Source: Azolla caroliniana
Taxonomy: Eukaryota > Plantae > Polypodiophyta
Assembly: GCA_043228905.1 (NCBI GenBank)
Contig: JBHGNT010000008.1
Location: 7,750,001-7,814,000, forward strand
Length of the DNA stretch: 64,000 nt
Reading direction: 5' to 3'
Below, one piece after another: positions 1,381 through 54,865 of the stretch. A model generated the notes under the pieces. It made no database searches, was not told where the DNA came from, and saw only the letters and a list, made by a program, of their open reading frames with translations. The position numbers and the translations under genes are program-made. Position 1 is the first letter of the stretch, and the number at the start of each line of letters is the position of its first letter.

Positions 1381-1732
1381 CAAACTCGTTTTGACACATT
1401 TCTCTGACATTATGTATAATAAAGTACAGTGCAATACATTTACAAAGAAGTGATATCAAGTGATGAAATAATATTGTAACTATGGCATTAAACAATACAG
1501 TTCAGTACATACAATATAATATAATATACAAGCAAGATTTTATAGCTATGGTGCTGTATAATACAATTCAACACATAAATTTATGATGAAAAAAACAATA
1601 CAACTCAACACAGCACAATTTAATAAAATCATGACAAGAAATGAGGCAAGATTTTGGAACTACAGTGTTGAATGATACAACACAATACAAAAATTTATGA
1701 AGAACAACTGACCCAAAAGGATGAGTGCTTAC

Positions 1733-2865: not shown

Positions 2866-3490
2866 AGCAATTGCCTGTTGCTAGTCCACGTCGCTTTGGA
2901 GCTAATCCCAAAGGCCAACCCCCAATCAAAACGCTCCAAATCAAGACCTTTGATACAAGTTGCAATTTAGAATGCCAAATATGTTTTAAGATTTTCCACT
3001 ATCCATGATTAGAGTTATGTACTTTCTATTCTTGTTCAACCTTAAATGGTAGGCATCGAAGAGATTCAATGGAGCAATGATACAAGAGATTAGTAGTCAC
3101 TTGTAAAAATTACACCTAACCGCGTAAACACCAATCAACCTATAGTTGGTCCTCGGTTTGTATAGGTAAAGGATCTTTGATTAATGTTAACACGTTTGCG
3201 TTCACAAGTGCAAGGATAAGGTTCCATCTTATTTTGGGGCTTTTTGGGCCATTTCACAAAACACCTTGATACCAGTATCACATATTCTCAAAAAGTTGAT
3301 AAAAAAGTTGAAATTTTCACCATTTGGTAAATTGGAAAATCAAGGCTCGTGTTTAGAATCTACTCAACGTGAGGAATGTTTATTCTGGACTAAGTCTTAG
3401 TTGCAAACACAATGTATTCCCTTTGGGAAAACTATCCAAAGGTGTGGTCGGAAGGATTGAATTATGTGCACATACAATTGCGAGTTATCT

Positions 3491-4474
3491 TGTTACGTTC
3501 TCTAGTATATATACTATTCGGTTATCTTATACACTCTTCGGTACACAATCCAAATCTAAATTAACACGTTGTCGTGAAGTGCGAAAGCTTCACATTAAAA
3601 GTCTACAATAAGATAAAACGTAATGAAAATAAAATAAACCTTTATAATGTTGATAACATACTATGATAATATTATACACTATATGTAGAGACAAAAATAT
3701 ATATATCTATTATATTACATGCAAAAGAGGACTTGAACCAACAACCTCAACCTTATAGCATTCAAACCTTACCATTTGGCCTATACTTATAATGTATAAA
3801 AGAGTGTGTCTTGTTTACATTTTAAGTAGTATTATATTGTTTAAACCATTAAACCATCAAACGAGCTACATGTGCACCATATAGCACACATGCAAGAGTC
3901 TCTCTGCATGTGCGCCACATGGCCCACATGTAGAACCATCTCTTCCCTATAAAAGGAGAAGGAAGTATAGACAAAGAAAACCAAGAAATAAGATGGAAAT
4001 GATTATATTGGATCTAGAGAAAGATATATTGTAATAAAGAAAGAGAGAGAGACAGAGAGAGGTATTCTTAAAAGAGAAAAGAAGAACTAGCTTGTTGGTG
4101 GTGGTCCTCAACTCGCAACAGAAGGGCAGCGGTTCGAGTATTATACTTGTCGAGAGATTGAAGGGAAGGCTATGGTCTACCATCAAGAAAGAGAAGAGTG
4201 ATTACCTAGTGAGACAAAGCTCGAAGGATCAACGATGCTTGCAATCATTTTGTAACTCATTCATCAAATAATTATAAGTTTCTTTCATTCCTTCAAATAT
4301 CATTCTATATCCCATCTTGTCATATCTTGTTGATCTCTATTTACTCTATCTCTACTCTTTCGTCTCTTTTGTCCATAATCCCAGTGATTCCTTCCTCACT
4401 TTCATGATATCTTTTGTCTACGCAATGGTACGCTTCTAGGCAAGCCACACTAAGCGTAGAAGGCAAGTACACCA
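3491..4474 (+). mobile_element. Solo LTR, probably of the tRNA-Trp-primed Gypsy lineage
   Basis: TGTTAC...ACACCA ends, imperfect flanking duplication TATCT/TATAT and TATA-like CTATAAAAGGAG at ~3947. The 3' motif GTCCATAATCCCAGTGATTCC resembles GTCCAAAACCCCAGCGGTTCCC in LTR 23988-24724 and GTCCAAGACCCCCGTGGTCCC in LTR 52026-52695. Confidence 0.65.
3719..3787 (-). promoter_or_regulatory. tRNA-like Pol III internal promoter (A box + B box) inside LTR U3
   Basis: Minus strand TAGGCCAAATGG (3783-3772) and GGTTCAAGTCC (3739-3729), 44 nt apart as in tRNA genes, followed by TTTT. Confidence 0.65.
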
Positions 4475-4776
4475 TATATATCCTCAATGAACTATATTAC
4501 TCACTCCCTTTGTTATGTACAATTCAAGCCCTTAAATAGGTAGCCTATAAGATACAAATTGATATCCATCTAGATGGTTGCATCCTTCAAGATCTGACAC
4601 TTCTATTAATAACTCTTCAAATCTAATAATATTTACAACGCTTCCTATTAACACTCAAAATTATTTATTTATTTGTCCTAGATTTCACACTTTGTCTGCC
4701 TCCGTCTTCACTCCTTCGGCTCTCCGGTTCTCCAACTTTCCGACTCTGACCCATGACAACTTCATTGGGCAACACA

Positions 4777-4816
4777 TGGCACATCCATGGGACAATACCT
4801 TGCACGTCGAACCCAC
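4777..4816 (-). other. tRNA-3'-half mimic (T-arm + acceptor strand + CCA) at the PPT position
   Basis: GTGGGTTCGA-cgtgcaaggtattg-TCCCATGGATGTGCCA, then 2 nt, then the LTR start TGTTG. Confidence 0.7.
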
Positions 4817-4822
4817 TCGCCC

Positions 4823-6068
4823 TCAACTATCTTCCAAAATTTCCAAAATGCTTTGTTGTTTGTCCTCCGCTATATCTTGCTAAGTTTCCATCTGTTCTGG
4901 CAACTCCTCATCTCCAGTCCTTTGTTGTCTCGGTGCTTGGTCCTCAGGCCATTTCGTCCGTTGCTCCGGCCGTTCTTCCTTCATGCGTGTCTGTTCCAAC
5001 TCCACCTCTAGTCACTCTTCATCACTAAGAATTTTCTGTTCGGCTTGGTTGTCCCTGGTCTGTTGTTCCGTCCGTTGAAGTCTCTCCCGCTCATAAGCTT
5101 CCAGCCCAATGTTAACTACAACTAATCATCCTCAAATTCTTCCAAGATTTTCCGTATTTCCTCTATTTGAACTTGAGCCATGGCTTGAAAGTCTTCGGAT
5201 AACTCCTCTCGGATTGTGATGATGCTTTCTTCATCCATCTTATAAAAATGATCTCCATTTTTTATCCTGTTATTTGCATCCGCACGGAACAATTGTAGTT
5301 CTATTGCTTGCCCCGACCATTCCTTCCATATTGCAACCGAACATTCCTCAAGTTTCTCTTTCATCCGTTGCCGCTGATTCTCCACAATTAGTCGGATTCT
5401 TTGTATCCCCATCTCTGTCTTCTCTTCCATGACATGCTTTTCCTATTTAAGCCGCTTAATTTGTTGCGTTCGCTTGGATCTCATATGCATGAGCTGAGTT
5501 TGATATGTGGTATGTACCTTCGTCAACACTTTTCTGGATCGTTCAATCATCTAGTCCTGGTCTCCCAATAGCTTGCTTGGCCTTCTCTGTCTCTTTTCTC
5601 ATTTGCTCCTTTGTTTCTTCAAATAACTTTTCCCACAACATCAATGCCCCAACCTTCTCCTTCACTTATGCTCGCACCTCTTTGAGTCGCTCCCATTGTC
5701 GGTCGAACTCCTTCTCCAACTCCTTGTGATCTCAATAGAGTTTCTCGAACTCCGCTTGCTTGTCCTTTAACCACCAGTTCCTTTGTGCAGGCAGCGTGTC
5801 ATCACGTTCTTTTTTTGTCGGAGCTCCTCCTGCAACCTTTTGATTTCCGTTCTAGCCATTCTTCGGATTTTCTCTTTTTCCTGCTGAATCGCTTCCTTCT
5901 CTTCCTTCATCAGGTTCAAACTTTCTTGAACCTTACGTAGTCCTTCCTCCATTTTCTTTTTCTCTTCTTCGGCTATTCCCTGCAACTGCTTCTCTTTCTT
6001 ACCTAGCGTTGTTTGCATGACAATTTCTTCTTTTAAGCTTTGCTAATTCCTTCTCCGCCTCTTCCGAC
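4823..6068 (-). pseudogene. Gypsy accessory (post-pol) ORF, C-terminal part: coiled coil plus conserved unknown domain
   Basis: ORF pieces 5767-6018 and 5122-5430. WKEWSGQAIELQLFRADANNRIKNGDHFYKMDEESI aligns with WMAWATQAAELHTYRADSENRRKDDRGFYKLNEESI in ORF 50173-50877. Confidence 0.75.
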
Positions 6069-6513
6069 TATCATGATATAGCATGGTATGGCTTCAAAAA
6101 GATTTGAACCCATCACCTTGTGGCACATGGGCAGAAGCCTTACCATTAAGCTATAAGTTGTAATACAAAAAATATTATTTCCATTTATTATTTCACTTAG
6201 GAAATCTGTGTATATTCTAGATTTCTCTGGAACATTCTAGAAATGTCAAGAGTATTCCTAAAGCCACTATAAAAAGAGGCACATGGCAAGCATTATCAAG
6301 AACAAAATCGGTTCAACGCTAGTCTTAGCCTCCTTGTTGTTCTTGTATCTTTCTTCTTATAATATAATATACTTCTTGTTGTCATCATTATCTCTCTCTC
6401 TCTCTCTCCTCTCACGTGGTTCTCACACACTCATTCCCTTCTCAGTACTAATCCTCATTCTTCTCCTCTACATTTAGTACTAATTCTCCTTGCCTCTAGT
6501 ACTATCCCTAACA
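6069..6513 (+). repeat. 5' LTR of the chromovirus
   Basis: Matches 11103-11450 plus ~16290-16393. TATAAAAA at 6268. Confidence 0.93.
6091..6156 (-). promoter_or_regulatory. tRNA-like A/B boxes in chromovirus LTR U3 (second copy at ~11125-11190)
   Basis: Minus strand TAGCTTAATGGTAAGGC (D-stem GCTT/AGGC intact) ... GGTTCAAATC, then TTTTT. Confidence 0.7.
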
Positions 6514-6515
6514 GT

Positions 6516-6528
6516 TTGAACCGATTTT
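6516..6528 (+). promoter_or_regulatory. Self-priming-type primer-binding site
   Basis: TTGAACCGATTTT is the exact reverse complement of AAAATCGGTTCAA at 6304-6316, about 36 nt downstream of the TATA box. No TGG-type tRNA PBS is present. Confidence 0.75.
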
Positions 6529-6594
6529 CCTCTTCAGCTTCGTATCCCTCCTTCCCTTTATACTAATCTTCTTATCCTTCCTTCCTCCAATACT

Positions 6595-7706
6595 ATGGCA
6601 ATTGTTACCGCTCAAGAATACCAATCTGTTTTCTTGAAGCTGCAGTGCTTGAAAGAAAGGTTTGTCGAATTGGAACAAGAAAATCAACGGTTGTTGGGGG
6701 ATCTTTAACAAATCTCTTTAGAAAAGCAGCAAGCGCAACAACATGGGGAGTTAGCGTTACATGTGCAACAACTTGAAGCAACCATTGTAGCATTGCAACA
6801 ACAAGGATCAAGTACTCAAGGGATTCATAAAGAGCCCAAGATCGGCCTTCCTATGAAATTCGATAGAACACGATCACAATTCAGAGGATTCCTTAATCAG
6901 GTACGATTAGTCATTCAAATGCATCATTCCCGATATCCCACTGATGCATCACGAGTGGGTCTAGTAGGCACGTTACTGAGCGGCTTAACTTTGGCATGGT
7001 TTGCTCTATTGTTGGAAAAAAGTTCTCCCTTACTAAATAATTTTGAAGAGTTTATAAGTGAGTTTAAAGCCTGTTTTGGAGATATTGATAGCATAAGAAC
7101 GATGATCAACAAAATCCAACGATCACGTCAAGGTGATTGTCCAGCCTCCACTTACGCTGCAGATTTCCGTCTACTACATTGATGGAGCAATTTCGATACG
7201 GCCTACGAAATGATGTCAAAGACTTACTCCTGAATTTCTCTGAAGAACCAAAATCACTCATAGAGGCAATTAGTCGAGTGGTACGATGCGATAACTGGCT
7301 TTTCGAACGATGTTCGGAATGCCAATTACAAATGCCAAGGACCAGGTTGGAGCCCACATACGCCTCGGTCGTAGCAAAACCATTTGCAAGGGAGTCATAT
7401 CATGCATCTCTGGCAAATACTCCAACACCGATGGAAATCGACACCACATGTCGTCATGGACCATTGTCGAAAGAAGAAAAGCAACTACGCCGAGTAAATC
7501 GATTATGTCTTTACTGTGGAGGACCAAGGCATATTGCAATAAACTGTCCACATAGGCCAAGAAGACGAGTAAATCAAATAGTTGCTTGTACTAAACCCAA
7601 GTCTATTTCGGTAGGAGTGTCTGATAGTCCTAATAGTACTAATAGCCCAAGTCTATCAAACAAATTTGATGTCCTTAGTCAGTTACAAGAAGAGTTAAAC
7701 GACTAA
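6595..7706 (+). pseudogene. gag: Chromovirus gag (capsid + CCHC knuckle)
   Basis: EPKIGLPMKFDRTRSQFRGFL, PTPMEID and CLYCGGPRHIAINCP. Stops and a frameshift are present. Confidence 0.9.
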
Positions 7707-11102: not shown

Positions 11103-11454
11103 TGTCATGATATAGCATGGTATGGCTTCAAAAGGATTTAAACCCATGACCTTGTGGCACATGGGCGGAAGCCTTACCATTAAGCTATAAGTTGTAATAC
11201 AAAGAATATTATTTCCATTTATTATTTCACTTAGGAAATCCATGTATATTCTAGATTTCTCTAGAACATTCTAGAAATGTCAAGAGTATAATTTCCTAAA
11301 GCCACTATAAAAAGAGGCACATGGCATTATCAAGAACAGAATCGGTTTAACACCAGTCTTAAGCTTCCTAGCCGTTCTTGTATCTTTCTTCTTAAAATAT
11401 AATATACTTCTTGTTGTCATCATTATCTCTCTCTCTCTCTCTCTCACTCTCTCT

Positions 11455-14400
11455 CAAAGCTCTTTGTAAGTTCATTATGGACATTGTTTTCTACGTTCTA
11501 TAGCTCTTGGAAAGCTCTTTTAGAGAGCTTTCTAAAGAATGTTCATTTATTGAATTCCAGTACTGTGGCGAGAAGTTATGAGCATTTTCATCCGCAACCA
11601 TCTTTGCCCCACGGTTCCTCAAACACAAGGTAGATTTTGAAGCCCTAAATCGAGTGAAAGGTACATTCTCTCTCCCTCCTTTTTTGTCTCTCTCTTCTCG
11701 TAGGGTTTGTCCCTACAATGACAAACACTCGTAAAGCTGCTGCAAAGTTCGGGGGTATGATTGATAATGAGCCGAGATCACCAACAAATCTCAATTCCAA
11801 TGCAATGGAAAAAATGCTTATGAGTCACTTTATTTCTCTTCAAGAAACTATAAACAAGCAAGGTGAAGAGATTAGGACGTTAATGAAAGAGAATGCTAAG
11901 CTCCAAATTGTTGTCATTGATAATGAAAGTCTTAAGCAAGTGGTTGCAAAACTTCAAGAAGAGATTCAAGAATGTAAAAGAGCTTCTATCGAAACAAATG
12001 AGCACCTTAACAAGATTGAGTTAAAGGAAACATTAAAAGAAGAAAAATTGGACACGATGAGGCGGAATGTAAGTGAGATGAAAAATGTATGTACAACGAA
12101 GTCATGGGCCAATGTATGTGGTGGGGATGTGGTATCAAACTCATCTAATATGCATGTGATGCATCAAGAGAAGAATATAGAAAGCATAGATGTTTGAGAA
12201 TTGAAAGAACATGAATGACGATCAAAGAACATTGCCGTCCGTGGGATTAAAGAAGAGAGTATGGAAACACCCTTATCCCTTGGAATTTTTTAGCATGCAT
12301 TATGTGATGTTAGATGTGAATGTATATGGGGCACACTGAGTTGGGAAACATGGTGTTAATTGCTCTGGAGAAAGGCCTATTGTATGCACAATGACAGATG
12401 ATACAAAGCAGCGGATCATACTCGAAAATAGTTGGGTATACCTCAAAGGTACGCAATGCTTTGTGACTGAAGATCATACTATCTCACAACAAAATGCTTG
12501 TCGTAAAGCATATGAAGAAAGATTGAAAAATAAGGTTAAGGATGTGCCTAAAGATGGAAATGTAGGCAAATACGGACACATGACCTATGAGACTAACCGA
12601 CGCCTTTTACGACTAGGATTTTGGAATTGCAATGGATACCCATGGAATGCGAGATTTGGCATAGAGGAGTTCACCAATGACTCGGATATCACACTTCTTG
12701 TTGAAACATGGGAGCATGATACTCAAAGGATTCAAGGTTTAGGAAACTATAATGTACACTCTTTGATATGGAAGAAAAATCCAAGACAAAGAAGAGGACG
12801 AGGGGTGGCATGTTTGATTAAGAAGGAAATAGAGAAATATGTGTCAATCATAAAAAATGATGAACATAAATGCTACATATGGCTCAAAATAGAAACACCT
12901 AATGATTTGCTCACTTTTGTAGTTGGATGTTACATTCCTCATCAAGATTCTAACTTTTATGCTTGTTTGGATAAAGATCAACCTTTTGTCAATCTAGAAG
13001 ATGATATTGCTTATTTCAAATCCAAAGGGGAAGTTATTGTCTTTGGTGACATGAATGCTCATACAAAAGTTTCCAACTTGATTCACAAGAATATTTCATG
13101 CCACATATCTCAAGGATGCAAGAGGATATGCAAATGTATAGCCGCTCTTCTAGCGATGAAAAAGATCTGAACCAATTTGGGAAGTTACTCCTACAAATGT
13201 GCAATTGTACCGGATTGCTTATTGCAAATGGTATTTCCTTATGGTTGGATCGTATACATAAATTCTCACTTGGTGAATGGACACCGGAATCCGATCATAG
13301 GCCTTGATCTCAAATGTATGCATAGGTTTGATTGTGAGAAGGCTATTGGAGATAATAAACAACCGCACTTGAGCATGAACCTTAAGCGAGCACCCATGTA
13401 TTCCAAGATGGTTGACGATATGGTACAAATGACAAAGATACAACATGGTGCCACACTAGAATGCAAATGGGAAGCTTTTAAGAAAGTCATTCTCTCCTGT
13501 ACAAACAAATGTTTTTCGACCAACCGTACATCTTGGAAATGCACCAAGAAACTTAGGGAAAAATGGTTTGATAAAGAATGTCGTGAAGCTCGAAAGTGCC
13601 TTATGGTTTTGGATGTAGTTAAGGATAAAGAGAATTACCAAAAGCATTTGCATGAGTATAAAAGACTTATTCAAAGAAAGAGAAGAATATAGGAAGTTAC
13701 TCAACAATTTATCCAAACGCAAGAGAAAGCACATGCATGTGCTAAATTTTGGGGAAATCTAAAGGGGAAACGTGTTGAGAGTTATGGTGACTTAACTCTT
13801 CACGACTTGTAAATGCATTGTAAGAATTTATATGAGTTATCTCTTGCCGGAAAGATGATGTGTTATGGTTCTCTTTCACATATGCCTCCCTTCTTTACAA
13901 TTGAAGATATATGCATAGGACTTAAGAAATTGGCCTCTCGAAAGGCAAGCAATCTTCAATGTATAAAGGCGGAAATGCTCAAATGGATGGGAAAGGAAGC
14001 ACATGTATGGATACACGATATGTTTAATGATGCATTGCAACATGGTATGCCGTACGATTGGACTACAAATTGGATCAAACCTTTAAATAAAGGTGGAGAT
14101 GTAAATAATGTAAACAACTATCGAACCATCATGGTTGGCTCATTAATGGCAAAACTGTTTGGATGTATAATGGAATCAAAGATAAGTGTATGGGGTGAAA
14201 AAAATGGTAAGAGAGCTTATGGACAAACTGGCTTTTGAAAACAACATAGCACCATTGATCACCTTATCACCCTTTGAGTATTAATGGAGGAAAGTCACCT
14301 TAGAGGTAAAGGTTTATATTGCTTTTTTATAGACTTCAAGAAAGCTTTTGATATGGTACCTTGTGAGCATCTTTGGAGGTGAATGGAAGAACTTGAGATG

Positions 14401-15940
14401 CCAAGTGAATATATGCTTGCAATTTCCCGAATTTATGAGAAGGTTATGTGTTGTGTGTGCATGAGAGATAAACTTTCAGATTTTTTCAAAAGCACTATTG
14501 GTGTTAAGCAAGGATGCCCACTCTCACCAACACTATTTGGTCTATGCATTGATGAATTGGAAGAAATGGTTACCAAGTTTGCAAAGGAAGAATGTGTTGA
14601 AGAAGTTGCCATTGGGAATGTTGTGATTATACTTTTGCTATATGCAGATGACGTAGTGCTTTTTGCAAATACTTTAGGAGATGCACAAAAGGTTATGAAG
14701 GCATTGGAAAAAGTTTGCATGCATACTGAATTAAGTGTCAATAGCTCTAAAACAAAGATTATGCTTGTGAAGAGCCAAAAAAGAGATAAACCATGCATTA
14801 TGTACAACAATGAGCAGGCACTTGAATGTGTGGAAAGCTTCAAATATCTTGGCCTTGAAGTTCTTTCAAATCATAAATGGAATGAATGTGCTACACGCCG
14901 TTTAGAGGCGGGTAAGCGAGCACACTATGCATTTGAGAACACATGCAATCTTGGAGATATTAAGTGTTGGTTCCTCGAGAAATATCTTTTCGACACTTTG
15001 GTGACACCGGTTCTTCTGTATGGGGTGGAAGTATGGGGCGGTAGCATCCCTAAATCTATGTGGAAAAAGTTTGAAAATGTCCAAAAACATTTTCTTACAA
15101 TGTTTCTACAAGTTAAGAAACAAACACCCTACACCCTCCTCCTTGAGATAGGATCACTTCCCATTGAGATCATGGCCATGGAAAGGGTTGTTGAATACAT
15201 GCTTAAGGTTCAAAAAAGTCCCTCACATCGACTTCCTAGAATTGCGTGGGAAGCAAGCAAAAAGATCCAAAAGACGCATAAAAGCAAAATTTTGTGTTCC
15301 AGTTGGATGCAAGATATAGAAAAATGGTTTGGTAGATTGGATGCGAGACACTTGCTTCATTATGCATCATTAGATTCCTCTATAAATGAGGCCTTTTTGC
15401 AACGCCAATGTATCATGACATGGGACAAATGTGGAGGCTCACGCTTCACACATTATACTACACATGTTGCACCTAACTACAAAACCATATTTTTTGTGGA
15501 ACGGGGAAATCGTACACATCGATACATGTTAGAGCCCATACCATTATTTGCCATTCGAACCATTGCTTCCATGCGACTTAGCTCACATGCATTGCGATGT
15601 GAGGCAGGTTGTTGGGCACAAGTGATGAGAGTGGTCGGCTATGCACACTTTGCCCTAAACAAGTTCGCGAGTCTGAGTATCACACTTTGATACAATGCTC
15701 TGCCTTTGATCATATTCGACCATGCTTTCCACATCTCTTCGACCGAGCTCAATCCTTGCATGAATTCCTCTCACAACCACAATGTGCACTCTTGATTGCA
15801 ACATTCATTGGTAAAGTTCTAGAACATCGAGAGTCACTACTCACTTTCACATGTATCACATGAAATGTAATATTTTTGGTCTCATAGGTCATATTTGACC
15901 TCCGAAGATGATAATATAATCTCTCTCTGTCTCTCTCTCT
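11455..15940 (+). mobile_element. Near full-length degenerate LINE (ORF1 + APE endonuclease-RT-zinc finger), inserted in the (CT)n of the chromovirus 3' LTR
   Basis: ORF1-like coiled coil 11718-12197; EN motifs GFWNCNG, LLVETW, VFGDMNA; RT motifs GVKQGCPLSPTLF, LLYADD; C-terminal RLCTLC...EYHTLIQC; ends in (CT)n. Confidence 0.9.
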
Positions 15941-16269
15941 TGTTGCATTGTGATGTGAGATAGGGCATTGGGGCACAAGTGATGAGAGTGGTCAACTATG
16001 CACACCTTTCCCTAAACAAGTTTGTGAGTCTGAGTATCACACTTTGATACAATGCTCTGCCTTTGATCATATTCGACCATGTTTTCTACATCTCTTTGAT
16101 CAAGCCAAATCCTTGCACGAATTCCTCTACAACCACAATGTGCACTCTCGATTGCAACATTCATTGATAAAGTTCTTGAACATCAAGAGTCACTACTCAC
16201 TTTCACACGTATCACGTGAAATGTAATATTTTTGGTCTCATAGGTCATATTTCACCTTTGAAGACGATA

Positions 16270-16306
<37 letters not shown>
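15941..16306 (+). mobile_element. Second, 5'-truncated copy of the same LINE 3' end, in tandem, also ending in (CT)n
   Basis: Repeats ~15587-15940 (GGCACAAGTGATGAGAGTGGTC...GAAGAYGATAATAYAATCTCTC). Confidence 0.88.
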
Positions 16307-41498: not shown

Positions 41499-43529
41499 TG
41501 TGAAAAGGACAACGTGCGGAAGCAAGAGAAAGCAGAACATAGGAAAACACAGGTTTAATGGAGAGTTTGGACACACACAGTATGTGGGAGAGAGAGAGAG
41601 AGAGTCAATACACACAACTCTCTTCGAAAAATAATACTCAGTCTATACATAGAATGTGCTCAGTGAGCACTTTTATGCAAGTCCATACAAACTGACAGAA
41701 GTACTGACACGTACTTCAATGCTCATAAATGAGCTCTACACTAACTCCCAAAATATATTCCTACGTGGAATATCTTTCCAATGGCCTCGCGATTTTACGC
41801 ACTGCTACGGCTTCTTGTTGCGCACTGGTTTACGTATCGGTCCGGCCTAATCGATCGGTCCCAACCGATCCGGTTCTCGGCTTGCACAGCCGATCCGGCC
41901 AATGTTGAGCTTGTATCTCAACACTCCCCCTCAAGCTCAACTTGAGGCTCTTCTAGTCCTTCGGGATCATCGCTCCGGTTTCTTCTAGCTTCACGCCTCG
42001 CTCGCGCTCCTTGACCTGTTCGATTCCGCGCGCCTCGACCCTTCCGATCGGCGTGTGTGCTCGTGCGACGCTTCTCAGCTCCCTTTCTGTCGCAGTGTTG
42101 TCGCCTCTTCAGTTGCCCTTTCTTCCGCTTGGCCCTTGGTTGATTCGGCGTCTCCGAATCAAACATCAAAATCGAATCGGTTTCCTCCGATCGGTTTTCG
42201 CTCTCATCCGAGTTGGCTTAATCTCCCCGACGCTTGGCTGGCTTTGGCTCTTTCTTTCGACTGTTGCCCTCACGTCCGCTTTCGAACTCTTTCGCGGATC
42301 CGCCCTTGGCTTCTTCAGCCGACCCGAAATCAAATTCGTCATCCGACTCGGCGCCACAGTCTCTTCCGCTCCTTTCCTGAATTCTCTCCCCCTCAATTTC
42401 GACACATCGAGGTGTCGCAACCCAAGCGCAACCGAGAATTACCGCAACTTGTCGAGACCAAGGGGCTTGGTGAAAATGTCGGCGGTCTGCCGATCCGTCG
42501 AACATACCAAAGTTCGACTTCACCGGAGAGGACACGCTCGTGGACAAAGTGGTAGTGCACCTCAATGTGCTTAGTTCGGGCGTGGAAGACAAGGTTCTTC
42601 GCTAACTTGATGTTGTTGAGGTTGTTGCAGTAGATTGTCGTCGGATCGAACACATCCACGTGCAGATCCTTAAGTAGCCATTTCAGCCAGATGGCTTCGC
42701 ATTTTGCGACAACCGCTCCTCTATACTCGGCTTCGGTGCTCGACAGTGCAACTGTCGGCTGCTTCTTGCTACTCCACGCAATCGCAGCGCTCCCAAGAGA
42801 GAATGTTGTCCGCCGGAATAGTAACCGACGGACAAGAGTGTAGGAATAAGAAATAATATAAGATCATAACGCATGTAAACAGTTCACACAGGAAGTGTGA
42901 ACGGCTAAATAGACCCTGCGTATATAAAGGGCAGAAAACCTCTGATAGAGGTAGCATGTATTTTGGAATGTAAAGAAGCGTATCGTAATAGAATTCTATC
43001 TTCTCTGAAAGTCTGTGTATAGCTATGGCTAATCTACTGTGTGTCTAGAATACCTGAGCATGTAAGAACGTGAGTGTAACCATGTCTAAGGAGTCAGTTG
43101 TAGCCGTCTCCCTTATACACTAATAGGTTACGGGGAACATTCCCATATGCATTACGCATAGACGCCCCATTCGTTGTTCCACAATCATTTGGAGGTCTCG
43201 GTCGAAGGCCTGACCGCAGACCGTGTCCTTAATCGGTAACACTTTTGGCACGCTTGGTGATCTGTGTCTTCTCACACACGAGCAACGACGAATGGATGTT
43301 TAGCCACAGACGCCCCAGAGAACCAACACGACAAGACCGGCCAATCACAAGGTCCGTCACACGCTAGGTAGAGGAACGCGCACGGCAAAAGCCTCACCTC
43401 AGCGACCTCAGTACTACCTGCCGTGATTACAAAGGTGATTCTTCACTCTCCAAATACCTCGATGATACGGGGGGAGCACGCTCACCACCGCCACCCTGTG
43501 GTCTTTCCCAACCCGCCGTAGCCCCCAAC

Positions 43530-46500
43530 ATGGCCTTTGCCTATCCCCGCTTTAACGGCGAAACCGACGCTGCAACCCATATTCGCATGATCCTTAATGT
43601 CTAGAATGTGAACCACATGGCGCAGAGCCTTTCGGAGGCGGTAGCGCACTAGTCGAAAATGACGGAGTACGGGTTAACATTGGATGGGCGAGCGGCGTTT
43701 TGGCATTCACAAATGGATTTACCAACAATCACAACCTTCGATTAGCTGCAGTCCGCTTTCTTGTGGTTCTTCCATCGGAGGGTTCCACAACGCGAAATCC
43801 TCGGACAGTTCTACACGATTAAGCAACTGCCGATCGAGACGATCGCAGACTTCAGCTTACGTTTCCAAAATTTACAGCGGAAACTAGAATGGAGCCACGC
43901 GAAGGACGAGGCTCGAGAGACATTTCTGGCAGCATTACGCCGACCCATCCGGGCAACGCTCAACAACAATGGCGTGAAAGGGGAAACGACGGATATGGTC
44001 ATTGAACGAGCATTACAGCTCGAGTTGCACGACGAGGAGGAAAGGTTTTCTATGTCCTCCTTACGACAAGCGTTACCCCAGGACGAGGAACGCCAGTTTC
44101 GGCAAGCAATCCAGTGCACGATTTACTTGAACTCGAGGCGTTCCGCAGTGGAGTGCAACATGCGAATCCACTGCCCAATCTACCACTCGAAGGATCACAC
44201 AGTCGAACAATGCGAATACAATATGTTGAACAGAGCCACTCCCATAGTCCGCAACATGGACACACAGCGTCCCCCACGCTGTCCTGAACAAAGGAGGCAA
44301 GAAGACCGACCACGGTATATGGATTACAACCCACGGGATGACCGACACCACCGGAATCGCCGAAATCACAACGATTCTGAGGAAGACGAACCAGAGGATG
44401 AGGATTATCATGGACATCTGAGTTATGCTAAAGGGGGCCGGCGCTATGAGAATCACTGGCCGACAAGCAAATGTGGCGGCTTCATTGGTTATCGTGGTAA
44501 GCCACGGCAATATCGAGATCACCGGCGTTACGAGGAAAGCTCGGGAGATGAGCGACACCAAGAACCACAACGGGACCAACAGCAACCACCGCATGCGTTC
44601 TGACAAACAAGGCTAGGCCGTGAGGAGCAAGTCACACCAGGGGATCGGCACACACCACCAGGAGCCGAGAAGGGTGAATCAAGCATCCATTGTTTTATTT
44701 GTCAGTAGCCTGGACATTATGCCACGCAATGCCCAACATGCAAGGGCAAGGGGCCTGCCGTCAATACGATTACGATGGAAGTGTAGCAAGTCACGACACA
44801 CCAGCAAACAAAAACGGTTGATTGGGCTACGCAAGATGAGATACGACGACAAGCCCAAGCATGGGCGCGATCAATACAGAGCACATGCGGAAGGAGTCCG
44901 CGAATGCGAGGGAGCAAGTAGAGGACGAAGGACCGGTCCCGAACCCCATTTGGTAGGCATTAGCGGGCTGCGAGATTACGTTAACCATGGAGAAGTTGTT
45001 GCAGCTAGTCCCACGCTTTCGCCAGACCATGGAAGAACGGGTGACGGGCATACCCGGAGTGAGCGTCGCTACAAACCTTACAAACGTTAGCGACGGACCG
45101 CCAGTAGTGGATCACCACAACCCGGCTATTACATTAATATTACACAGATAGGAAATTCCTGGATGTGTAATTGAATGGCGGCTCAAGCGTTAATGTAATT
45201 AGCGCGAAAACTTGCGAGCAGTTAGGCATTTCAGAATGAGAGGCTTGGCCATTCTGGCTCCGAATGGCAGATACCCGCTCAGTACGACCATTGGGATTAA
45301 TTCGCAAGATAGGCATTATTGTGGGCGGACATCGCTTCGACATCTCGGCGGTCGTCTGAGCCTTGAACACCCCAGGGGCGTACTCAGTGCTTCTGGGCAG
45401 ACCATGGCCTCGAGCAACAAATATCAAGCAGAGCTGGCAACACAAGTGTATCAGTTTCCGACACGGACGCACTAAGGTTCGCGTACCTACGGAAGGAAGC
45501 ACGCCACAACCCAAGGGTATAACACCATTATATGCAAAAGATATAAATATGTTGGCTGGGGTGGAGGATGCAAAATTAGAGGCATACCTAGATGAGCACC
45601 ATTGGATCATTCCGCTGTTCGAAATCGATGTCATCACAACCGCGACAGAATATGCCACAGCCACTATTCTCCACGACGAGGCTTACGAACCAAACCCAGA
45701 TTCCATATTGGAACTCAGCAAAGCATGGGTGGCATTCGAAAGGGAAATGGAAATTTCACGATGAGTCACTGCCTCCGCCCTAGAAGAAGTAAATGTGGGT
45801 ACGGAGTCGGAACCCCGTTTCCTCTCCATCGCAAAGGAATTAAGGCCGGACCAGAGAAACACGATGATCGCACTACTCATGAAATATAAAGATGTGTTCG
45901 CTTGGGCTCACGAGGACATGAAGGGGTTAGATCCCAAGTTCTATCATCATAAGATCAATTTAGCAACCAACGCAAAACCCGTCCAATAGCGTTGCTACCG
46001 CATGAACCCGAACTACACAACCCGCGTAAAAGAAGAAATTGACAAACTCTTGAAGGCGGGGTTCATACGGCCAGTTAAACAAGCCACATGGTTAAGCCCG
46101 ATAGTGGTTGTTCCAAAGAAAAATGACAAAATACAGGTATGCGTGGATTACCGAAAATTAAACGCCGTAACCATTACGGACGCATTCCCTTTACCCTTCA
46201 CCGATAGCGTATTGGACGCCGTCGCAAGACATGAGATGTACAGTTTTTTAGATGGCTTCAGTGGGTATAACCAGGTACGCATGCATCCCGAGGACCAAGA
46301 AAAGACGGCATTTGTCACGGACTGGGGAGTCTATGTGGTAGTCGTCATGATGTTCGGGCTAAAGACGACGCCGACAACATTTCAACGGACAATTACGAAG
46401 ATCTTTGGGGAATACATTCTGGCGTTCATGCAAGTTTTTTTAGACGACTTTGCGATATATGGGAGAACAATAGACCATTTTAGGCACCTACAAATGTGCC

Positions 46501-48641
46501 TAGAACGTTGCCACACCGCATGATGTGCTTTTGGCATGACCAGCGGGACTCTCCTGGGCCATATAGTGAGCAAGGAGGGAATAGTGGTCGATCCGAACAA
46601 GATCTCCGCGATTACGCAAGCCAAAACTCCGTCAAACGCGAAATCACTCGGCCGGTTTTTAGGACAAATACGGTGGCATAGTCGGATGATACGATATTTG
46701 GCGGACTTGGCCACGCCGTTACATGGTGCCGTACATCGAACTCCCTTCCAATGAACCGCAACAGAGGACAAGGCCTATGAGGCACTTAAGATAATGCTCA
46801 CACAGGCCCCCGTCGTACAACCACCAGTTTGGGCGAAGTCATTCCACGTGTTCGTCGACACCTCGGACATGGCAATAGGAAGTGCACTAATGCAGCTCAC
46901 CGAACCAAACTGGTACTGGCCAGTGTACTACACTAGTCGCAAATTATCAACAGCAGAGCGTAACTATTCCACAACGGAGCGGGAGGCGCTAGGGATGATC
47001 TATAGCATCAATAAATTCCGGCATTATTTACTAGGGAGGAAATTCACGTTCCATGTGGATCATTCAGCGTTGCTGTATTTGGTGGAGAAACGAGCCTTGA
47101 CGGGGAAATTTGGCGCGATGGATGCTGCTGCTTCAAGAATTCGATTTCGTAATCCAACACCGACCAGGGATGCAACATGCAGTGGCAAATTTTTTGAGCA
47201 GACTCCAGAATGGAGAAATAGTACAGAAAGATGATGACGATTTTCCGAATGTCGACATCCTACGGGTAGTAGCACTAGCAGAAAGAACGGAATCGACCAT
47301 TCTGGACTAGTGGCTTATGGAAATGACATACTTTTTTACTACGGGACTGCCTCCACCACAATTACGCACAAACGAGAAGAAACGACTAGCCGTCCGAAGC
47401 CGTAACTTCTGCCTTGTAGGAGTTTTATATCACAAAGGAAGTGACGGCATTTGGCGACGTGGGGTACGTCAGGATGAGAAAGAAGCAATTTTACGGGAGG
47501 CGCACTGCGGCACGGCAGGCGGCCATTACGCGGGCGACGTTACAGCCCGGAAAATATGGCAGGCGGGCTTATGGTGGCCAACAACGCTGAAGGATGCATT
47601 CGAGTATTGTAGAAAGTGTGATTTGTGTCAACGGATGGGCCAGCCCACGGAGGGCGCAAGGATGCCACACCAGCCTGTATTACCGCTAGACCCCTTCCAA
47701 AAGTGGGGATTGGATTTTGTAAGCCCCTTCACACCGGCGACAGCCCGTACGAGCAATAAATACATATTGGTAGCTACGGATTATTGCACCAAGTGGGTAG
47801 AAGCAAAGGCATTATGAGAAAATACGACGGTCGTCATAGCCAGATTCCTTTACGAGCACATCTGGTGTCGATTCGGCTGTCCGATTGAGCTCATCAGTGA
47901 CCAGGGGAGTCACTTTCTCAATACGGTGGTTCGGGAACTAACACAACATTACACAGTAGTCCACAAGAAGAGCACGCCGTAGTCCATAAGAAGAGTACGT
48001 CATATTATCCACAGGAAAATGGGTTAACAGAATCCACAAACAAGACGTTGCAGACCATCTTGAAGAAAATCGTCAATGAAAATAGAACGGACTGGGATAC
48101 CAAATTACAGAGTGCGTTATGGGCGTACAGAACCAACTACAAAACAAGCATACAGTCAACACCATTTCGACTAGCGTTTGGACTGGAGGCTGTGATGCCA
48201 GTCGAATTTCAGGTACCCAGTTTGCAGATTCAGGTATGGGACCGACTATCGGAAGCCAAGTCAGAGGAGGTACGACTCCACCAGCTACTCGAACTCGGGG
48301 AAAAACGCGTACACAACATGGTTGTGTTGGAGCAGGAACAACGACAACGTAAAGTGTTTGTGGGTCGACATCGGAACGCAAGGGAAAAGGAGTTCGCCAT
48401 TGGTCGACCGGTGCTGGTTTTCCAAACCCGCATGGGCCATATGCCAAGGAAGTTACGATTCCGCTGGACCGGCCCATACTGGATAATTGGAGCGGAACAA
48501 GGCATGTTCCAACTAGGTACGTTGGCCGAGAAAGTAATATGGCAAAAGGTGAATGGGTTTCGCCTTAAACATTACCTGGGCTCTACGCCACCTCACCCAT
48601 TCACCGCCAAAAAGGATAGAGCCGAAGAACCCGCAGCATAA
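43530..48641 (+). pseudogene. Gypsy gag-pol
   Basis: ORF fragments 43761-48641 with stops and frameshifts. No extra archaeal-type RNase H and no chromodomain seen. Confidence 0.92.
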
Positions 48642-48759
48642 ATGGACGGCCCCACTTGTACCATAATGTAAAAATAGGCTGTATATAACCGTTACGAAAA
48701 AAAAGAAAAAGAAAGAAAGAGAAGATAGCACTATTAAAAGCACCAAATGCATGCACAGA

Positions 48760-51506
48760 CTCCTAGTTCAAGAACACGCGACACCACGATGGCTCACTGC
48801 CCAATGAACTCTAAGCCACAAAAAGAAGAAAATAGAAGACCTTCTGCACAAAACAAAAACCCACCTTCTAACTATCAGCGCTCCCATCGCTCCTCCCCCT
48901 CACCTTCTCCTCCATCCTATCACAGAGCTCCAACCCAACGCAACCACCAGTCTCCTTCCCGCCCCGATCCGCGAAGCACAGGTTAGCGGAGTTAGCGGCC
49001 CCAGAGTGGGAAGAGGAACCCCAACCCGCCCAGCCAAACACACGGGCAGTGCAGGAGGAACAGTCGGCACATTCTATGGAAACAGCCCCAGAGCCAGACA
49101 CCAAAACATGGCAGGATAGCCCCAGACCAAAACGGCGTAGATTGGACAGGAAAGATGGACGGGGATTGGTCAAAGACGTCCCCATGGCAGCACAAACAAC
49201 GACCGAAGGCGATGGCTCCACAACTACGGAGCCCAATAGCATCTTCGAAATCATCCGGGAGCCACAAGTGATCATTACAACCCAGTCCCAACGAGGGAAA
49301 GCCATATTGACAGCGGAAAGCAAGATTTTGGCATATCCAGATATCTTGGATACGGCCCATGAGTTCAGTGCCCTCTTATAGTTCAAAACCTCTTTTGAGA
49401 TCATGAAATTCCTGGCAACACAACAAATAAAAGCCTCCCAATGAATGGTTGAGGAGCACGCGGAGCGCCAGATGATCGAGTGCGCCCTAACACAAACGGC
49501 GGAGAGCGACGATGAGGACCGGCTAGCCAGGGTCGGCAGACAGAGGAACGCCGGGGTACGCCGAGTGAGGATGGAGCTACCCCCATTAAACACGGCCCTA
49601 GTCGAAGTCCATAGGGAACTGGCAAAGGTCAACACGGGCGCCAAGGAGATGGCCATTAAAAATAAGAATGTCTGGAAGAAGGTGAAAATGACCCAAGCCG
49701 AGCTGCAAAAAGCCAACGAACGCATCGCGGAGTTGGAAGCTATCCGCCACCAAACCACGACATCGACGCTTTGAAGGAAGAATTTGAGGCTCAGACCGCC
49801 ATCGCCTCAAAAGCGAAAAGGGTCGTGCAACTAGCGGGATCAGAAATTAACCGCCTTCGAGCTGAACTGCGCCAATCCTCAAACAAAGAAAAGGAGATCC
49901 AGGCTAATGACCGGAAGGCAGTAAAAACCCTTGAAGAGAAACTCGCTACAGAGGTAGCTCAGCACATCCATACAAAAGACGAAAACACCCAATTACGGGA
50001 TGAAGCGAAGAAATCAGAGGCGGCAATCGTGGGACTCTAGGCCTTATTAGAGAAAAAGAAGGTAGGGTTCGACGAGCAGTTGATGGTCGAACAAGAAAGA
50101 AGGCATCAGCTCGAAATCCGCCTAAACAATGAAATGGGGAACTTAGAAGAACAACACGCAAAGGAATCCTAGTTGTGGGCGGGCTTGAAGACCACGTACG
50201 AAGAAGCGGCGGCGGTTAGGCAGCAAGAAATTGCAAACCTCCAGAAGTCGATGGAGGATGCACGCAACCGTTGCCAGGCCATCACAGACAACGTGCATAT
50301 CCTTCTCCAAACAAATCGGGAGAGGTTCATAGCGCAATTGAAAATGACGTTGGACAAAGGATGGATGGCGTGGGCAACCCAAGCAGCGGAATTGCACACG
50401 TATCGTGCGGACTCGGAGAACCGGCGAAAAGACGACCGAGGTTTCTATAAACTAAATGAGGAGAGCATTGCGACCGTACACAAGGACCTAGCGCAAGACT
50501 ATCGTGCGCTAGCGGACAAACATTTCGAAGAACTCGCGCAGTTCTTATATGATTTTGGTGAAAACCAGGAGGAGTTATTTCACCAGATCACACAAGCCGG
50601 CAACACGCGAACCAATGAGGAATCCAGCGCAATGCCAATTCTGGGCATGGCCGAAGAAGAGGAACCTCGTGCCAGATCACAAGAAATTACAACGGTGAAC
50701 AACGCGGATCGACGAGCAGAGTCCCCCACAGTACTAGACAGAGAAACCACTGCCCAAGAGGAGCACCATTCGCAGGAGCCCACGCTATCGTCGAACCACA
50801 CGGAGAACAGTGTGGTCCAGGTGGAATCGCAACCCCACTCCCTGGAACGTACAAAGATAGCTGACACAAGGACCTAGCGCAAGACTATCGTGCGCTAGCG
50901 GACCAACATTTCAAAGAACTCGCGCAATTCTTATATGATTTTGGTGAAAGCGAGGAGGAGCTATTTCACCAGATCACACAAGCCGGCAACACGCGAACCA
51001 ATGAGGAATCCAGCGCAATGCCAATTCCGGGCATGGCCGAAGAAGAGGAACCTCATGCCAGATCACCAGAAATTACGACGACGGTGAACAGCGCGGATCG
51101 ACGAGCAGAGTCCCCCACAGTACCAGACAGGGAAACCGCTGCCCAAGAGGAGCACCATCCGCAGGAGCCCATGCTATCGTCGAACCACACGGAAAACAGT
51201 GCGGGCCAGGTGGAATCGCAACCCCACTCCCTGGAACGTACAAAGACGGTTGACACCATTGAGGAAGTAACGATTGAGACAGAGCCGCGGATGACCGCAA
51301 GCATGACGACGGCGGAGCCCAACCCACTAGCTCAAGAAGAGCCCACCATACCCGGACCGCCCACACACGACGACTGCGACACCGAGAGAAACCATTCCGA
51401 CCAAACAGGGGAGCCACACCACGATGCACCAACGGGCCCTACGTCGCCTCCGGACGCGGACACCGTAGCAGAGCCAAACATCCGGGCCATTTTGGAAGAA
51501 GATTAA
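48760..51506 (+). pseudogene. Accessory ORF: disordered N-terminus, long coiled coil, conserved unknown domain, acidic tail
   Basis: Fragments 49049-49774, 49771-50877 and 51018-51506; internal ~386 bp tandem duplication (50478/50864); homologous to 4823-6068 and 16394-16716. Confidence 0.8.
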
Positions 51507-51510
51507 CGGG

Positions 51511-51551
51511 ATGGGTCCAATGTGCTAGGGCACTATTCCACAGGCGTGCCA
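51511..51551 (+). other. tRNA-3'-half mimic ending in CCA at the PPT position
   Basis: ATGGGTCCAA-tGTGCtaggGCACta-TTCCACAGGCGTGCCA, then GG, then the LTR start TGTTG. No purine tract. Confidence 0.72.
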
Positions 51552-52698
51552 GGTGTTGTCCGCCGAAATAGTAACCGACAGACAAGAGCGTAGGAATAAG
51601 AAATAATATAAGATCATAACGCATGTAACGGTTCACGCAAGAAGCATGAACGGCTAAATAGACCCTGATAGCTACGGCTAATCTATTGTGTGTTTGGAAT
51701 ACCTAAGCATGTAAGAACGTGAGTGTAACCATTGCTAAGGAGTCAGTTGTAGTTGTCTCCCTTATACGCTAATAGGTTACGGGGAACATTCCCCTATGCA
51801 TTACACATAGACGCCCCATTCATTGTTCCCCAATCATTTGGAGGTCTAGGTCGAAGGATTGACCGCAGACCATGTTCCTAATCGGTAATAGAGAACGGGA
51901 ATCCGGATGTGGATCGGCGATCGCCGGCGTTTCCGGCCCAATCAGTATCGGTGTAGCCAACTAACTGTGCAGCAATATCGGTCTGATATAGTAGCCCCCA
52001 GTCTTTAGTGCCACTGATGTACCGGTGTCGTGAAGAAAACCGCCCACAAGAGGAATCGGAGGAACAAGGCGTGGGAAACGGCTCTACACACACGCGCGCC
52101 AAGAAGTACATACGAGGATCCTAGGTGGGTAGATTCGGTTGGTATGCAGTTAATGCCAAACGGCCTCTTGACGGGATATAAAAAGGAAGAGGAAGAATAG
52201 GAAAAGATATCTCGCGGGGGGAGAGGACGAAGTGCTGCCGAACCGATTTCGGAGCTCCTCTCTCACTCCTGCTTTCTCTGTCTTCTGCTCCATCGCGTAC
52301 CTGTGCAGGTTTCGAGGAGGCTTGCGCTGTTCCGTGGAACGCCCCGAGTGCGTCCTGCAGCACCTCCGACCTGTTTCCCTTTCTGTGCGTCGCAACATAC
52401 AGGGGTCGGCATCTGTTCGCCGCCCCGTTCGTTTTCGTTAGTATCCATTCCGTGCCCCGCCGTGGGTTGTAATTCTTTGGTCTGTTATTTTCTTGCATTC
52501 ATAACATATCTTTCGTTGTTGCGTCCATCTGCGTCGGCGTTTGTTTGTGATCTCCGTTTGTTGGGCCGTGTCCCTGTGCAATCTTCGGTTCTGTGTAATC
52601 GGGTCTCTCTCTTACTCCGCTCTCTCTTGCTCTTTGGTCCAAGACCCCCGTGGTCCCTCCTCCTTTCTGCACGCAAGGGCGTAGCAACCCCGACATCT

Positions 52699-52716
52699 TG
52701 GTGAACCCGACGTGAA
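52699..52716 (+). promoter_or_regulatory. Primer-binding site for tRNA-Trp
   Basis: TGGTGAACCCGACGTGAA is complementary to the plant cytosolic tRNA-Trp 3' end (TTCACGTCGGGTTCACCA, recalled from memory). Confidence 0.85.
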
Positions 52717-52738
52717 AGAGGCGGCAGAAGAGCAGGAA

Positions 52739-54865
52739 ATGAGGGGGTCGGATCTCGCAGAGGCCATGGCTTCGGCCGTGGATCGGATTGTAAACGCGCG
52801 CGAGAGCACCGGTGCCCTCGACAGAGCTATTGAGGCGGTCGTCGGCACGATCGGCCGGTTCGATGGGAAAGATGCCACGAAGTATTTGGCGTCCTACGGT
52901 GCAGAGATGCTGATGCGGGACATTCCGGAAGAAAGGCGTCTTGCCGGATTTCCCCGAGTAGCGATGCCGAGCATCCATGCGGAGGTGCTCGAGGTGCGGA
53001 CGGAGAGCCGTACCTGGGAGGAGTTCGAAGGTCGGCTCCTAGAGAAATACGGGCTGGACGACGCGCTCCGGCTTTCGAAGCGAAGGTTCATGGAATGGGT
53101 GGAGTCCCCGGGGAAGGGAAGAAACGCGTCGGCGCTCCTCCGGGAGTTCGAGGAAAACTTTGCGCGCCTTTCGGCGCTCGACCGAACCATCCTGGACACG
53201 AGCCGGGTCTTGCTGTTTGTCAAGTCGGTCGACGAGCGGGATCGGGAGCAAGTGGGCTTCTTGCTGGAGACCGAAGACGGGCTCACTACCGACTGGGCGG
53301 CTGTCAGGAAGGTCTGTGGCCGTTTCGACAAACGGCGAGAATGGGCGGATAACGGGGCGACCGGGTCGGGCTCGGTCGCAGCAAGGAAGCTCGAACCAGC
53401 GCCGCAGGTGCGCAAGGAAGAGACCCGGGAGTGGTTGGAAACCGGTTCGGCTTCGACCGGCGTAGTCAGAGGCTCAACCGGAGGAGAGGCGCTGGAGGAA
53501 TTGACGAAGGCGATAAAGGACCTCCAAATCGCGCAGGCCCGAAGGAAAGGAGGCGAACCGGCTCGTGACCGACGGCCGGCGGCAGGAAACAGGTGCATGT
53601 GGTGCGATGAAGTCGGCCACATTCGGAAGGACTGCGGCGACTTCGCGGAGGCGCTGAGGAACAGGGTGGTGTACCTGTGGGAAGGACGGGTGCATGCCAG
53701 CGACACCCGAAGGGCCCTGAGCCGAAACGACGGAAAGGGTGGTATGAAAAGGGTGATGGAAGAGGCGGCGGCCCGACACGCGGAAACAGTCCACTACTCG
53801 GCGTCAGCCGGCATTCGAGTCGGGGGCGGCGAGGCCCGGGGGGAAAGCAAAGCCGGATTCTGGCCGACGATGCTGGAAGGCCTTGCCGGTGCAGGGCTTA
53901 AAAGGGAGGAATCGGACCGTGCGGAGAAACGGGTACGGGAGATGACCGGGTGGAGCGACCCGGTCGAGGAAAAGACGGGCTTCGTGGAAGCCGCTTGCAG
54001 GAACTACGAGGCTCTGGTAGAAGAGAAGCGGGTGGGGAAACCCGGGACGACCGGGCCCTCACAACGATACGAGACCCGGTCCGGGCCACGACGGGACGAA
54101 GCCGGCGGGGCCGGTACGCGAGATAAACCCCAGAAGGGCGGGTATCGTCTGGGGACGGAGATAGAAAGAACCACGGACTTACGAAAGGTCCTGGAGGAAC
54201 GGATCCTCGACAGCAAGGTGGAGCTGTCGTTACGAGAGGTGCTGGGAATCGCCAAGAAGGAGTTCCACGACTCCATCGTGGACTTGGTGAAACGGAAGAG
54301 GCTGTCGACGGAGACAGAACCGGAAAGACCGGTGGAAGTGCGGACGACGCACCTAGACGACATGGCTCTGGGAGACGAGTGGGCGGAAAGCCACTATTCG
54401 AGACCACATTGGGCCCGAGCGACCACGGAAACCCCGGTGAAGATCGGCGATGTCCAGGAACCGGTGGTAGCTTTAGTAGACCACGGATCGGAGATCAATT
54501 TGATGTCCATGGACTTCTATAAGAAGGGCAAATGGCCGATCAACACCAAGCACGGGTGGAAAATAAGGGCAGCAACGCGCGCCACCGAGGAACTGCACGG
54601 GGCCTGTCCGAACGTGCGAGTCAAGATCGGCGACGTTGAGATTGACCAGCACTTCTTCGTGCAGGAGACGTCTTCGCATCCGGTCATTCTGGGAGAGCCG
54701 TACATCACGGCGGCGCGAATGGAGACCAAGGTGCTGGACAACGGTTCAGCCTATGCGCGGGTCAAGAGCCAGGACGGGCGCCATTCGGTCCAGTTTTTGA
54801 CGGTCAGGCCGAACCACGAGCGTAACCGCGACTCCCTCGGTTCCGATAACCGAGAGGATTTTTAG
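52739..54865 (+). CDS. gag: Gag-protease polyprotein
   Basis: Open frame from ATG 52739; CMWCDEVGHIRKDC knuckle; aspartic protease ALVDHGSEIN...VILGEPY. Confidence 0.93.
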   Translation: MRGSDLAEAMASAVDRIVNARESTGALDRAIEAVVGTIGRFDGKDATKYLASYGAEMLMRDIPEERRLAGFPRVAMPSIHAEVLEVRTESRTWEEFEGRLLEKYGLDDALRLSKRRFMEWVESPGKGRNASALLREFEENFARLSALDRTILDTSRVLLFVKSVDERDREQVGFLLETEDGLTTDWAAVRKVCGRFDKRREWADNGATGSGSVAARKLEPAPQVRKEETREWLETGSASTGVVRGSTGGEALEELTKAIKDLQIAQARRKGGEPARDRRPAAGNRCMWCDEVGHIRKDCGDFAEALRNRVVYLWEGRVHASDTRRALSRNDGKGGMKRVMEEAAARHAETVHYSASAGIRVGGGEARGESKAGFWPTMLEGLAGAGLKREESDRAEKRVREMTGWSDPVEEKTGFVEAACRNYEALVEEKRVGKPGTTGPSQRYETRSGPRRDEAGGAGTRDKPQKGGYRLGTEIERTTDLRKVLEERILDSKVELSLREVLGIAKKEFHDSIVDLVKRKRLSTETEPERPVEVRTTHLDDMALGDEWAESHYSRPHWARATTETPVKIGDVQEPVVALVDHGSEINLMSMDFYKKGKWPINTKHGWKIRAATRATEELHGACPNVRVKIGDVEIDQHFFVQETSSHPVILGEPYITAARMETKVLDNGSAYARVKSQDGRHSVQFLTVRPNHERNRDSLGSDNREDF

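Follow-up and report, generated by a model that had tools for sequence, protein, structure and literature searches.

Ty3/gypsy elements of Azolla caroliniana with a tRNA-Arg(UCU)-sense module, a candidate second primer-binding site, in place of the polypurine tract

The decayed element E1 and its full-length relative E2

The window (the whole stretch of DNA that was analysed, 64,000 nucleotides from Azolla caroliniana) carries on its minus strand a motif that was confirmed to belong to the 3′ end, now decayed, of an old non-chromovirus Ty3/gypsy element, here called E1. Its features, in the order in which the minus strand is read, are:

4823–6073, minus strand: 3′ part of the extra ORF of E1, coiled-coil-like and interrupted by stops (tblastn match to a relative over 6036–5119, E 4e-36)
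4777–4816, minus strand: tRNA-Arg(UCU)-sense module of E1, a decayed copy at the position of the polypurine tract (PPT), recognised by sequence reading, tRNA comparison and a covariance model, and made up of the next three features
4807–4816, minus strand: 5′ strand of the T-stem, and the T-loop, tRNA nt 49–58, GTGGGTTCGA, by match to the tRNA
4794–4806, minus strand: 13-nt insert after A58, a hairpin by compensatory changes across subfamilies, with two C-to-T changes in the E1 copy
4777–4793, minus strand: 17-nt tail with CCA at its end, corresponding to tRNA nt 59–76 and one base shorter than the tRNA
4775–4776, minus strand: TG spacer of 2 nt, separating CCA from the LTR
3377–4774, minus strand: 3′ LTR of E1 (TG...CA), starting TGTTGCCC at 4774, delimited by relatives' LTRs
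roughly 4461–3567, minus strand: insert of ~0.9 kb interrupting this LTR

The extra ORF ends in ILEILEDS followed by a TGA at 4825–4823, and 6 nt of the minus strand separate this stop codon from the module. A chromovirus insertion truncates E1 at 6074, and no gag-pol of E1 was found within the 64-kb window. LTR relatives of E1 share ~523 nt, from TGTTGYCC to ATAAACA, and include solo LTRs (among them L216, with a 5-bp target duplication) as well as 5′ LTRs with a primer-binding site (PBS; L189, L194, L205 and L207), those of the E1 subfamily preceding the PBS TGGCGACCAC. Because relatives occur in both of these forms, 4774 is a true LTR start, which settles a check that the first-pass annotation had called for; the motif, the 2-nt spacer and the LTR start that it had claimed were all recovered when the minus-strand sequence was read directly. 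Ten stretches taken upstream of E1 relatives contained no full-length element of the E1 subfamily.

Two further tRNA-like stretches lie nearby on the minus strand. One, at ~3790–3720, is within the 0.9-kb insert of the E1 LTR and may belong to a SINE; the other, at ~6155–6090, has A-box and B-box-like motifs (identified by eye) and sits in one LTR of a gypsy element with a chromodomain, the twin LTR of which starts from 11108. LTRs containing tRNA sequence are already known, and this one resembles them. A LINE (~11444–16290) was also noted as an insertion in the 3′ LTR of the chromovirus, within its (TC)n tract, and a 93% similar copy adjoins a TC tract in L129.

The related element E2 is present in full length on the plus strand:

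42804–51890, plus strand: E2, with the target duplication GAGAA
42804–43241, plus strand: 5′ LTR
43246–43259, plus strand: ordinary PBS, complementary to tRNA-Arg(UCU) and preceded by a 4-nt spacer
about 43.5–48.6 kb, plus strand: gag-pol, decayed
about 48.9–51.5 kb, plus strand: extra ORF
51511–51551, plus strand: module of the same kind as that of E1, followed by the spacer GG at 51552–51553
51554–51890, plus strand: 3′ LTR

The parallel between the two elements had been quoted correctly, with the spacer GG and the LTR from 51554, and a comparison of LTR-adjacent module loci agrees with the view that the E1 copy represents an independent, diverged subfamily. The differences between the copies are mostly transitions, as had been said, but some are fixed within a subfamily; T55C and a longer loop, for instance, are fixed in the module of the E2 (51.5-kb) family. 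Next to E2 is another gypsy element (52026–59086), whose 670-nt LTRs are 100% identical and whose PPT is G-rich; it has a 4-bp CCGG duplication, and its PBS is presumably that of tRNA-Trp. The CCGG duplication fits the NCGN target preference given for Phygy in the accessible text of that study (PMC6317226).

Occurrence of the module and the elements that carry it

The module corresponds to host tRNA-Arg(UCU) nt 49–76 plus CCA, with 13–14 nt inserted after A58 and one C absent. It thus holds only tRNA nt 49–76 with CCA, by comparison with the full cloverleaf of a tRNA gene or the A and B boxes of a tRNA-derived SINE, which come without an encoded CCA; ARAGORN predicted no tRNA in the window, and there was no Rfam tRNA match at 3300–6600. 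Insertion of the elements into tRNA genes was considered and rejected, as four clean gene copies have neither the CCA nor the insert. A pattern search gave 25 tRNA-like places, 12 of which were retrieved, with an ARAGORN call of tRNA-Arg(TCT) at six matches. Diverged tRNA-Arg(UCU)-like copies sharing a 3′ flank were seen separately as a cluster at G000:C4 19.51–19.57 Mb (L040–L042).

The element-type tail followed by 2 nt and TGTT has 2,957 exact matches in the 523-Mb genome versus 0 for the reversed control, and the module is therefore not a chance arrangement. Similarity searches with each window copy led to 30 loci, the query copies among them; all 30 have the module, a few in decayed form. 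A second sample was picked by integrase, not by the motif, and comprised 20 young copies, of which 18 had both LTRs in view; the module stood 2 nt before the 3′ LTR, together with a 5-bp target duplication, in 18/18 of these complete copies and in 0/20 of the 5′ LTR flanks. More diverged copies had it in 14 cases out of 20, and the remaining six end before the 3′ end. Since the LTR pairs of the young copies are 98.7–100% identical (17 measured), the module family has been active recently. A covariance model that included both window copies recognised two places in the window, the E1 and E2 modules, and 35 places in 46 stretches retrieved by location; 2 nt and then TG came directly after 19 of the 20 genome matches retrieved with it, so that within this genome the matches are LTR-adjacent, as the first-pass annotation had predicted of such a model.

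No polypurine tract was found before the 3′ LTR in four copies, in which the longest purine run within the last 20 nt is 3 and the purine fraction 0.45–0.5. Two PPT elements of the window have longest purine runs of 5 and 8 versus the 3 of the module elements. Short non-coding derivatives with a period of ~2.3–2.6 kb (L248, L290, L221, L232 and L296; G000 L101, L107 and L144) keep the LTR, PBS and module and match neither pol nor the extra ORF.

These findings bear on the idea that the module is a neutral relic or a by-product of the end of the ORF. The E1 window copy is indeed decayed; however, the module is conserved against LTR and upstream sequence that diverge around it, it is retained in the non-coding derivatives, and its hairpin has compensatory pairs (see below). 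Judged by this covariation and retention, the idea appears largely refuted and scarcely credible. The module is real, selected and lineage-wide in this genome; selection had been suggested previously from the conserved position, hairpin, CCA and 2-nt spacer, and the comparison of loci, the covariation and the complete integrase-picked copies all bear it out.

Pfam analysis of two intact relatives gave the domain order gag-PR-RT-RH-INT, with which the E2 fragments agree; this order, TG...CA LTRs with target duplication and a tRNA PBS behind the 5′ LTR are those of Ty3/gypsy elements. Neither intact relative has a chromodomain after integrase (Pfam, E up to 1) or a second, archaeal-type RNase H, a single RNase H region being present, and the lack of an extra RNase H means that the elements are not Tat. 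Both contain the extra ORF, which has no Pfam family; presence of such an ORF and absence of an additional RNase H is the Athila-type combination. Their RT-RH region is 50–55% identical to proteins of Riccia, Marchantia and Adiantum, with which they group (support 85) in a quick tree of 64 rows built without REXdb references. A seed-plant group, which we take to be Athila, lies beside them in that tree, and the elements fall outside it. No relative of the integrase was found among viral contigs.

A metagenome scan returned 119 stretches; among the 80 listed, 78 were from one numbered assembly series and two were chance matches. Many LTRs on the metagenome stretches were <85% identical to, or had no match in, the G000 loci compared. 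The stretch is present in sequencing runs of two organism labels and in leaf metagenomes, where summed read depth peaks on the module and LTR start, and no RNA dataset was among the listed runs containing it.

Covariation, predicted pairing and tRNA-LTR junctions

Covariation was counted on 38 hand-picked rows, mostly from pattern matches. The inserted hairpin, extended into tRNA positions 57–61, showed both-sided changes at 6/7 pairs, versus compensatory change at 0/4 pairs of the T-stem-like helix, the 3′ strand of which was partly fixed by the search patterns yet is constant also in the location-picked copies. In six rows G58 faces T60, a combination that a sense-strand fold would accommodate; RNA folding without constraints yielded no single structure. 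A folded 'tRNA mimic', the wording of the first-pass annotation, sits badly with a T-stem that does not covary beside a hairpin that does, and with the host tRNA sequence carried by the left ends described below.

Pairing between minus-strand DNA and the tRNA was considered in the same rows. Of the changes at nt 51–57, 19/23 would still wobble-pair, although the chosen patterns and rows bias this tally, and decay also produces G-to-A changes. On the minus strand the module consists of 10 PBS-like nt, the hairpin and then GAAC at offset 31–32. This arrangement recurs in ordinary 5′ PBS regions, where GAAC lies at offset 27–33 in 18/22 autonomous-type rows; the PBS listing has 43 rows, and the 21 besides these are short-derivative PBSs, antisense modules or chance. 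In the young family L338–L357 the module has three different changes at tRNA positions 68–69, two of them not wobble-compatible, and the PBS is perfect for the same tRNA as the altered module.

Module position, identity with host tRNA-Arg(UCU), covariation of the hairpin, lack of a purine run and the tRNA-LTR-start junctions presented below were all observed directly. On these sequence data we propose, with a probability of roughly 0.75, that the module serves, on minus-strand DNA, as a second primer-binding site and is not a folded mimic, host tRNA-Arg(UCU) priming the plus strand from it. A mirror-image PBS would probably have replaced the PPT in these elements, with host tRNAs priming both strands, often two different arginine tRNAs, on RNA and on DNA. 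Once RNase H has cleared the RNA, the tRNA's 3′ end would pair with minus DNA at the module, the hairpin looping out at A58 and GAAC pairing with the T-loop in a mirror image of the 5′ PBS layout. Plus-strand synthesis would begin with the 2-nt spacer, which integrase would later trim; where primer removal is late, RT would copy the tRNA up to the modified A58 and leave 18-nt footprints. It is established for retroviruses that the RT stop at methylated A58 leaves 18 nt.

Such footprints were sought as tRNA-length tails with CCA, in searches that gave 13, 17, 14 and 2 places; with duplicates merged, these amounted to 27 junctions, which were classified by comparison with LTRs whose orientation was known. 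In 16/27 the tRNA is joined to an antisense LTR end; these are ordinary minus-strand footprints and confirm tRNA-Arg(UCU) as minus-strand primer. L121, L124–L127 and L337 join antisense LTR ends and so belong to this class. One junction is a native module and five are unassigned. The other 5/27, independent of one another, have tRNA sequence joined through CCA to a sense LTR start, and the tRNA portion is exactly 18 nt in L120, L130 and L132, 57 nt in L075 and 56 nt in L176, which has a junction spacer of 4 nt. From their sequence, these five are likely to be what a retained plus-strand primer would be expected to leave.

The element whose 5′ LTR is L075 is complete, its two LTRs are identical, and its PBS matches another tRNA-Arg. 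The L132 junction carries a gene variant of the tRNA, not the tail of its own element, and here too the PBS is that of the other tRNA-Arg. In L130 the LTR end is followed by the PBS spacer, a single T, the exact tRNA 18-mer, AG and the LTR start; the element's own module differs from this 18-mer, and at a junction in a sister copy the left end begins at AG. The other tRNA-Arg joined to nn-TGTT gave 0 matches in the genome search, and no tRNA-bearing loose end was found on contigs among the rows listed. A separate observation concerns L120 (~1500–1660, minus strand), where, past the tRNA 18-mer and LTR start, a fold-back leads into an inverted LTR tip with CA at its end, resembling an aberrant strong-stop product.

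Several points count against tRNA priming: the sense-start events are only five, template switching onto the tRNA through 10-nt homology could give the same junctions, mismatches at positions 68–69 are tolerated, and the one duplex predicted for the young family (-38.3) is not better than its best shuffle (-41.3). The main rival holds that the plus strand is primed by the element's own RNA, which at this site would form a structured fragment resistant to RNase H, the module being a non-purine PPT or a tRNA mimic. It accounts for the position, the 2-nt spacer, the covarying hairpin, the G58-T60 pairs, which fit a sense-strand fold, and the tolerated mismatches; it does not account for the T-stem-like helix without compensatory change, nor for captured left ends that have host tRNA sequence, and it would need occasional template switches to the tRNA. 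Searching for the series LTR end, spacer, remnant, nn and TGTT produced two matches; neither has the element's 17-nt tail, and both are right-end joins, which makes the test a weak one. We consider own-RNA priming unlikely.

Tf1 is known to self-prime its minus strand. A Tf1-like alternative is pairing between the module and the PBS of the same element, which would circularise the RNA or self-prime the minus strand, and the tail is in fact complementary to the own PBS over ~7–11 nt in E2 and in the L130 family. By contrast, the PBS of the E1 subfamily and several others is not complementary to the module, and minus-strand starts are marked by real tRNA footprints at the 16 junctions above. As PBS and module often match different tRNAs, self-pairing was rejected, and we hold it to be very improbable.

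Whole 76-nt tRNA-Arg copies with CCA were found captured at element PBS ends in L073 and L078, implying that RT had read through modified bases. These Tat-like read-through copies make an origin of the module by capture plausible in this genome, and they would suit a further alternative in which a tRNA fragment was captured once and kept for packaging, strand transfer, as a small-RNA decoy or as an integrase signal, with plus-strand priming elsewhere. Yet no purine tract is present where the left end of the LTR must be defined, the 2-nt spacing is fixed, and tRNA-to-LTR-start junctions exist. Retention for such a role alone seems to us decidedly improbable, and priming of the plus strand by host tRNA-Arg(UCU) at the module is the reading that we prefer.

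Comparison with known systems

Reviews, in their accessible portions, treat plus-strand priming from a PPT as the rule for LTR retroelements and minus-strand priming as variable. No tRNA-primed plus strand in LTR elements was found in literature titles and the starts of abstracts, mostly of non-subscription papers. If the proposal is true, the use of a tRNA on template DNA would depart from this rule and bear on primer selection and removal by RT and RNase H; 3′ tRNA fragments might control the element at both ends; and there would be consequences for annotation tools that expect a PPT. As the site is short and the family recently active, the claim is directly testable.

The elements share with canonical PBS and PPT replication, as set out for Ty3 and retroviruses in the available text of PMC5371799, their LTRs, 5′ tRNA PBS, gag-PR-RT-RH-INT and 5-bp duplications, and likewise one primer site sets the left LTR end. 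They differ from that scheme in that the purine tract is absent and a tRNA-sense module is predicted to recruit host tRNA on DNA. Like Athila, Tat, Phygy and Selgy, they are without a chromodomain and have a tRNA-Arg PBS, an extra ORF and a length of ~9–10 kb; those elements, unlike the ones described here, mostly have a PPT, and the part of the source available to us describes no tRNA module (PMC6317226).

A tRNA-related site near the 3′ end, with pairing of the T-arm and the 3′ end, is also found in Ty3, Ty1 and Drosophila gypsy as a bipartite or second PBS (PMC5371799; PMC1635307, both in their accessible parts). According to these texts, Ty3 and Drosophila gypsy have second sites that complement the tRNA on RNA and serve the minus-strand primer, whereas the module is tRNA-sense, includes CCA and can match a tRNA other than that of the PBS. 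The closest comparison for the junctions is Tf1, in which, from the accessible text of PMC11042837, copies of both primers are kept at the cDNA ends and mark integrase-independent insertions; the left-end remnant is a PPT in Tf1 and host tRNA sequence in the module elements. If the priming inferred here holds, these elements represent a new variant of LTR-retrotransposon replication.
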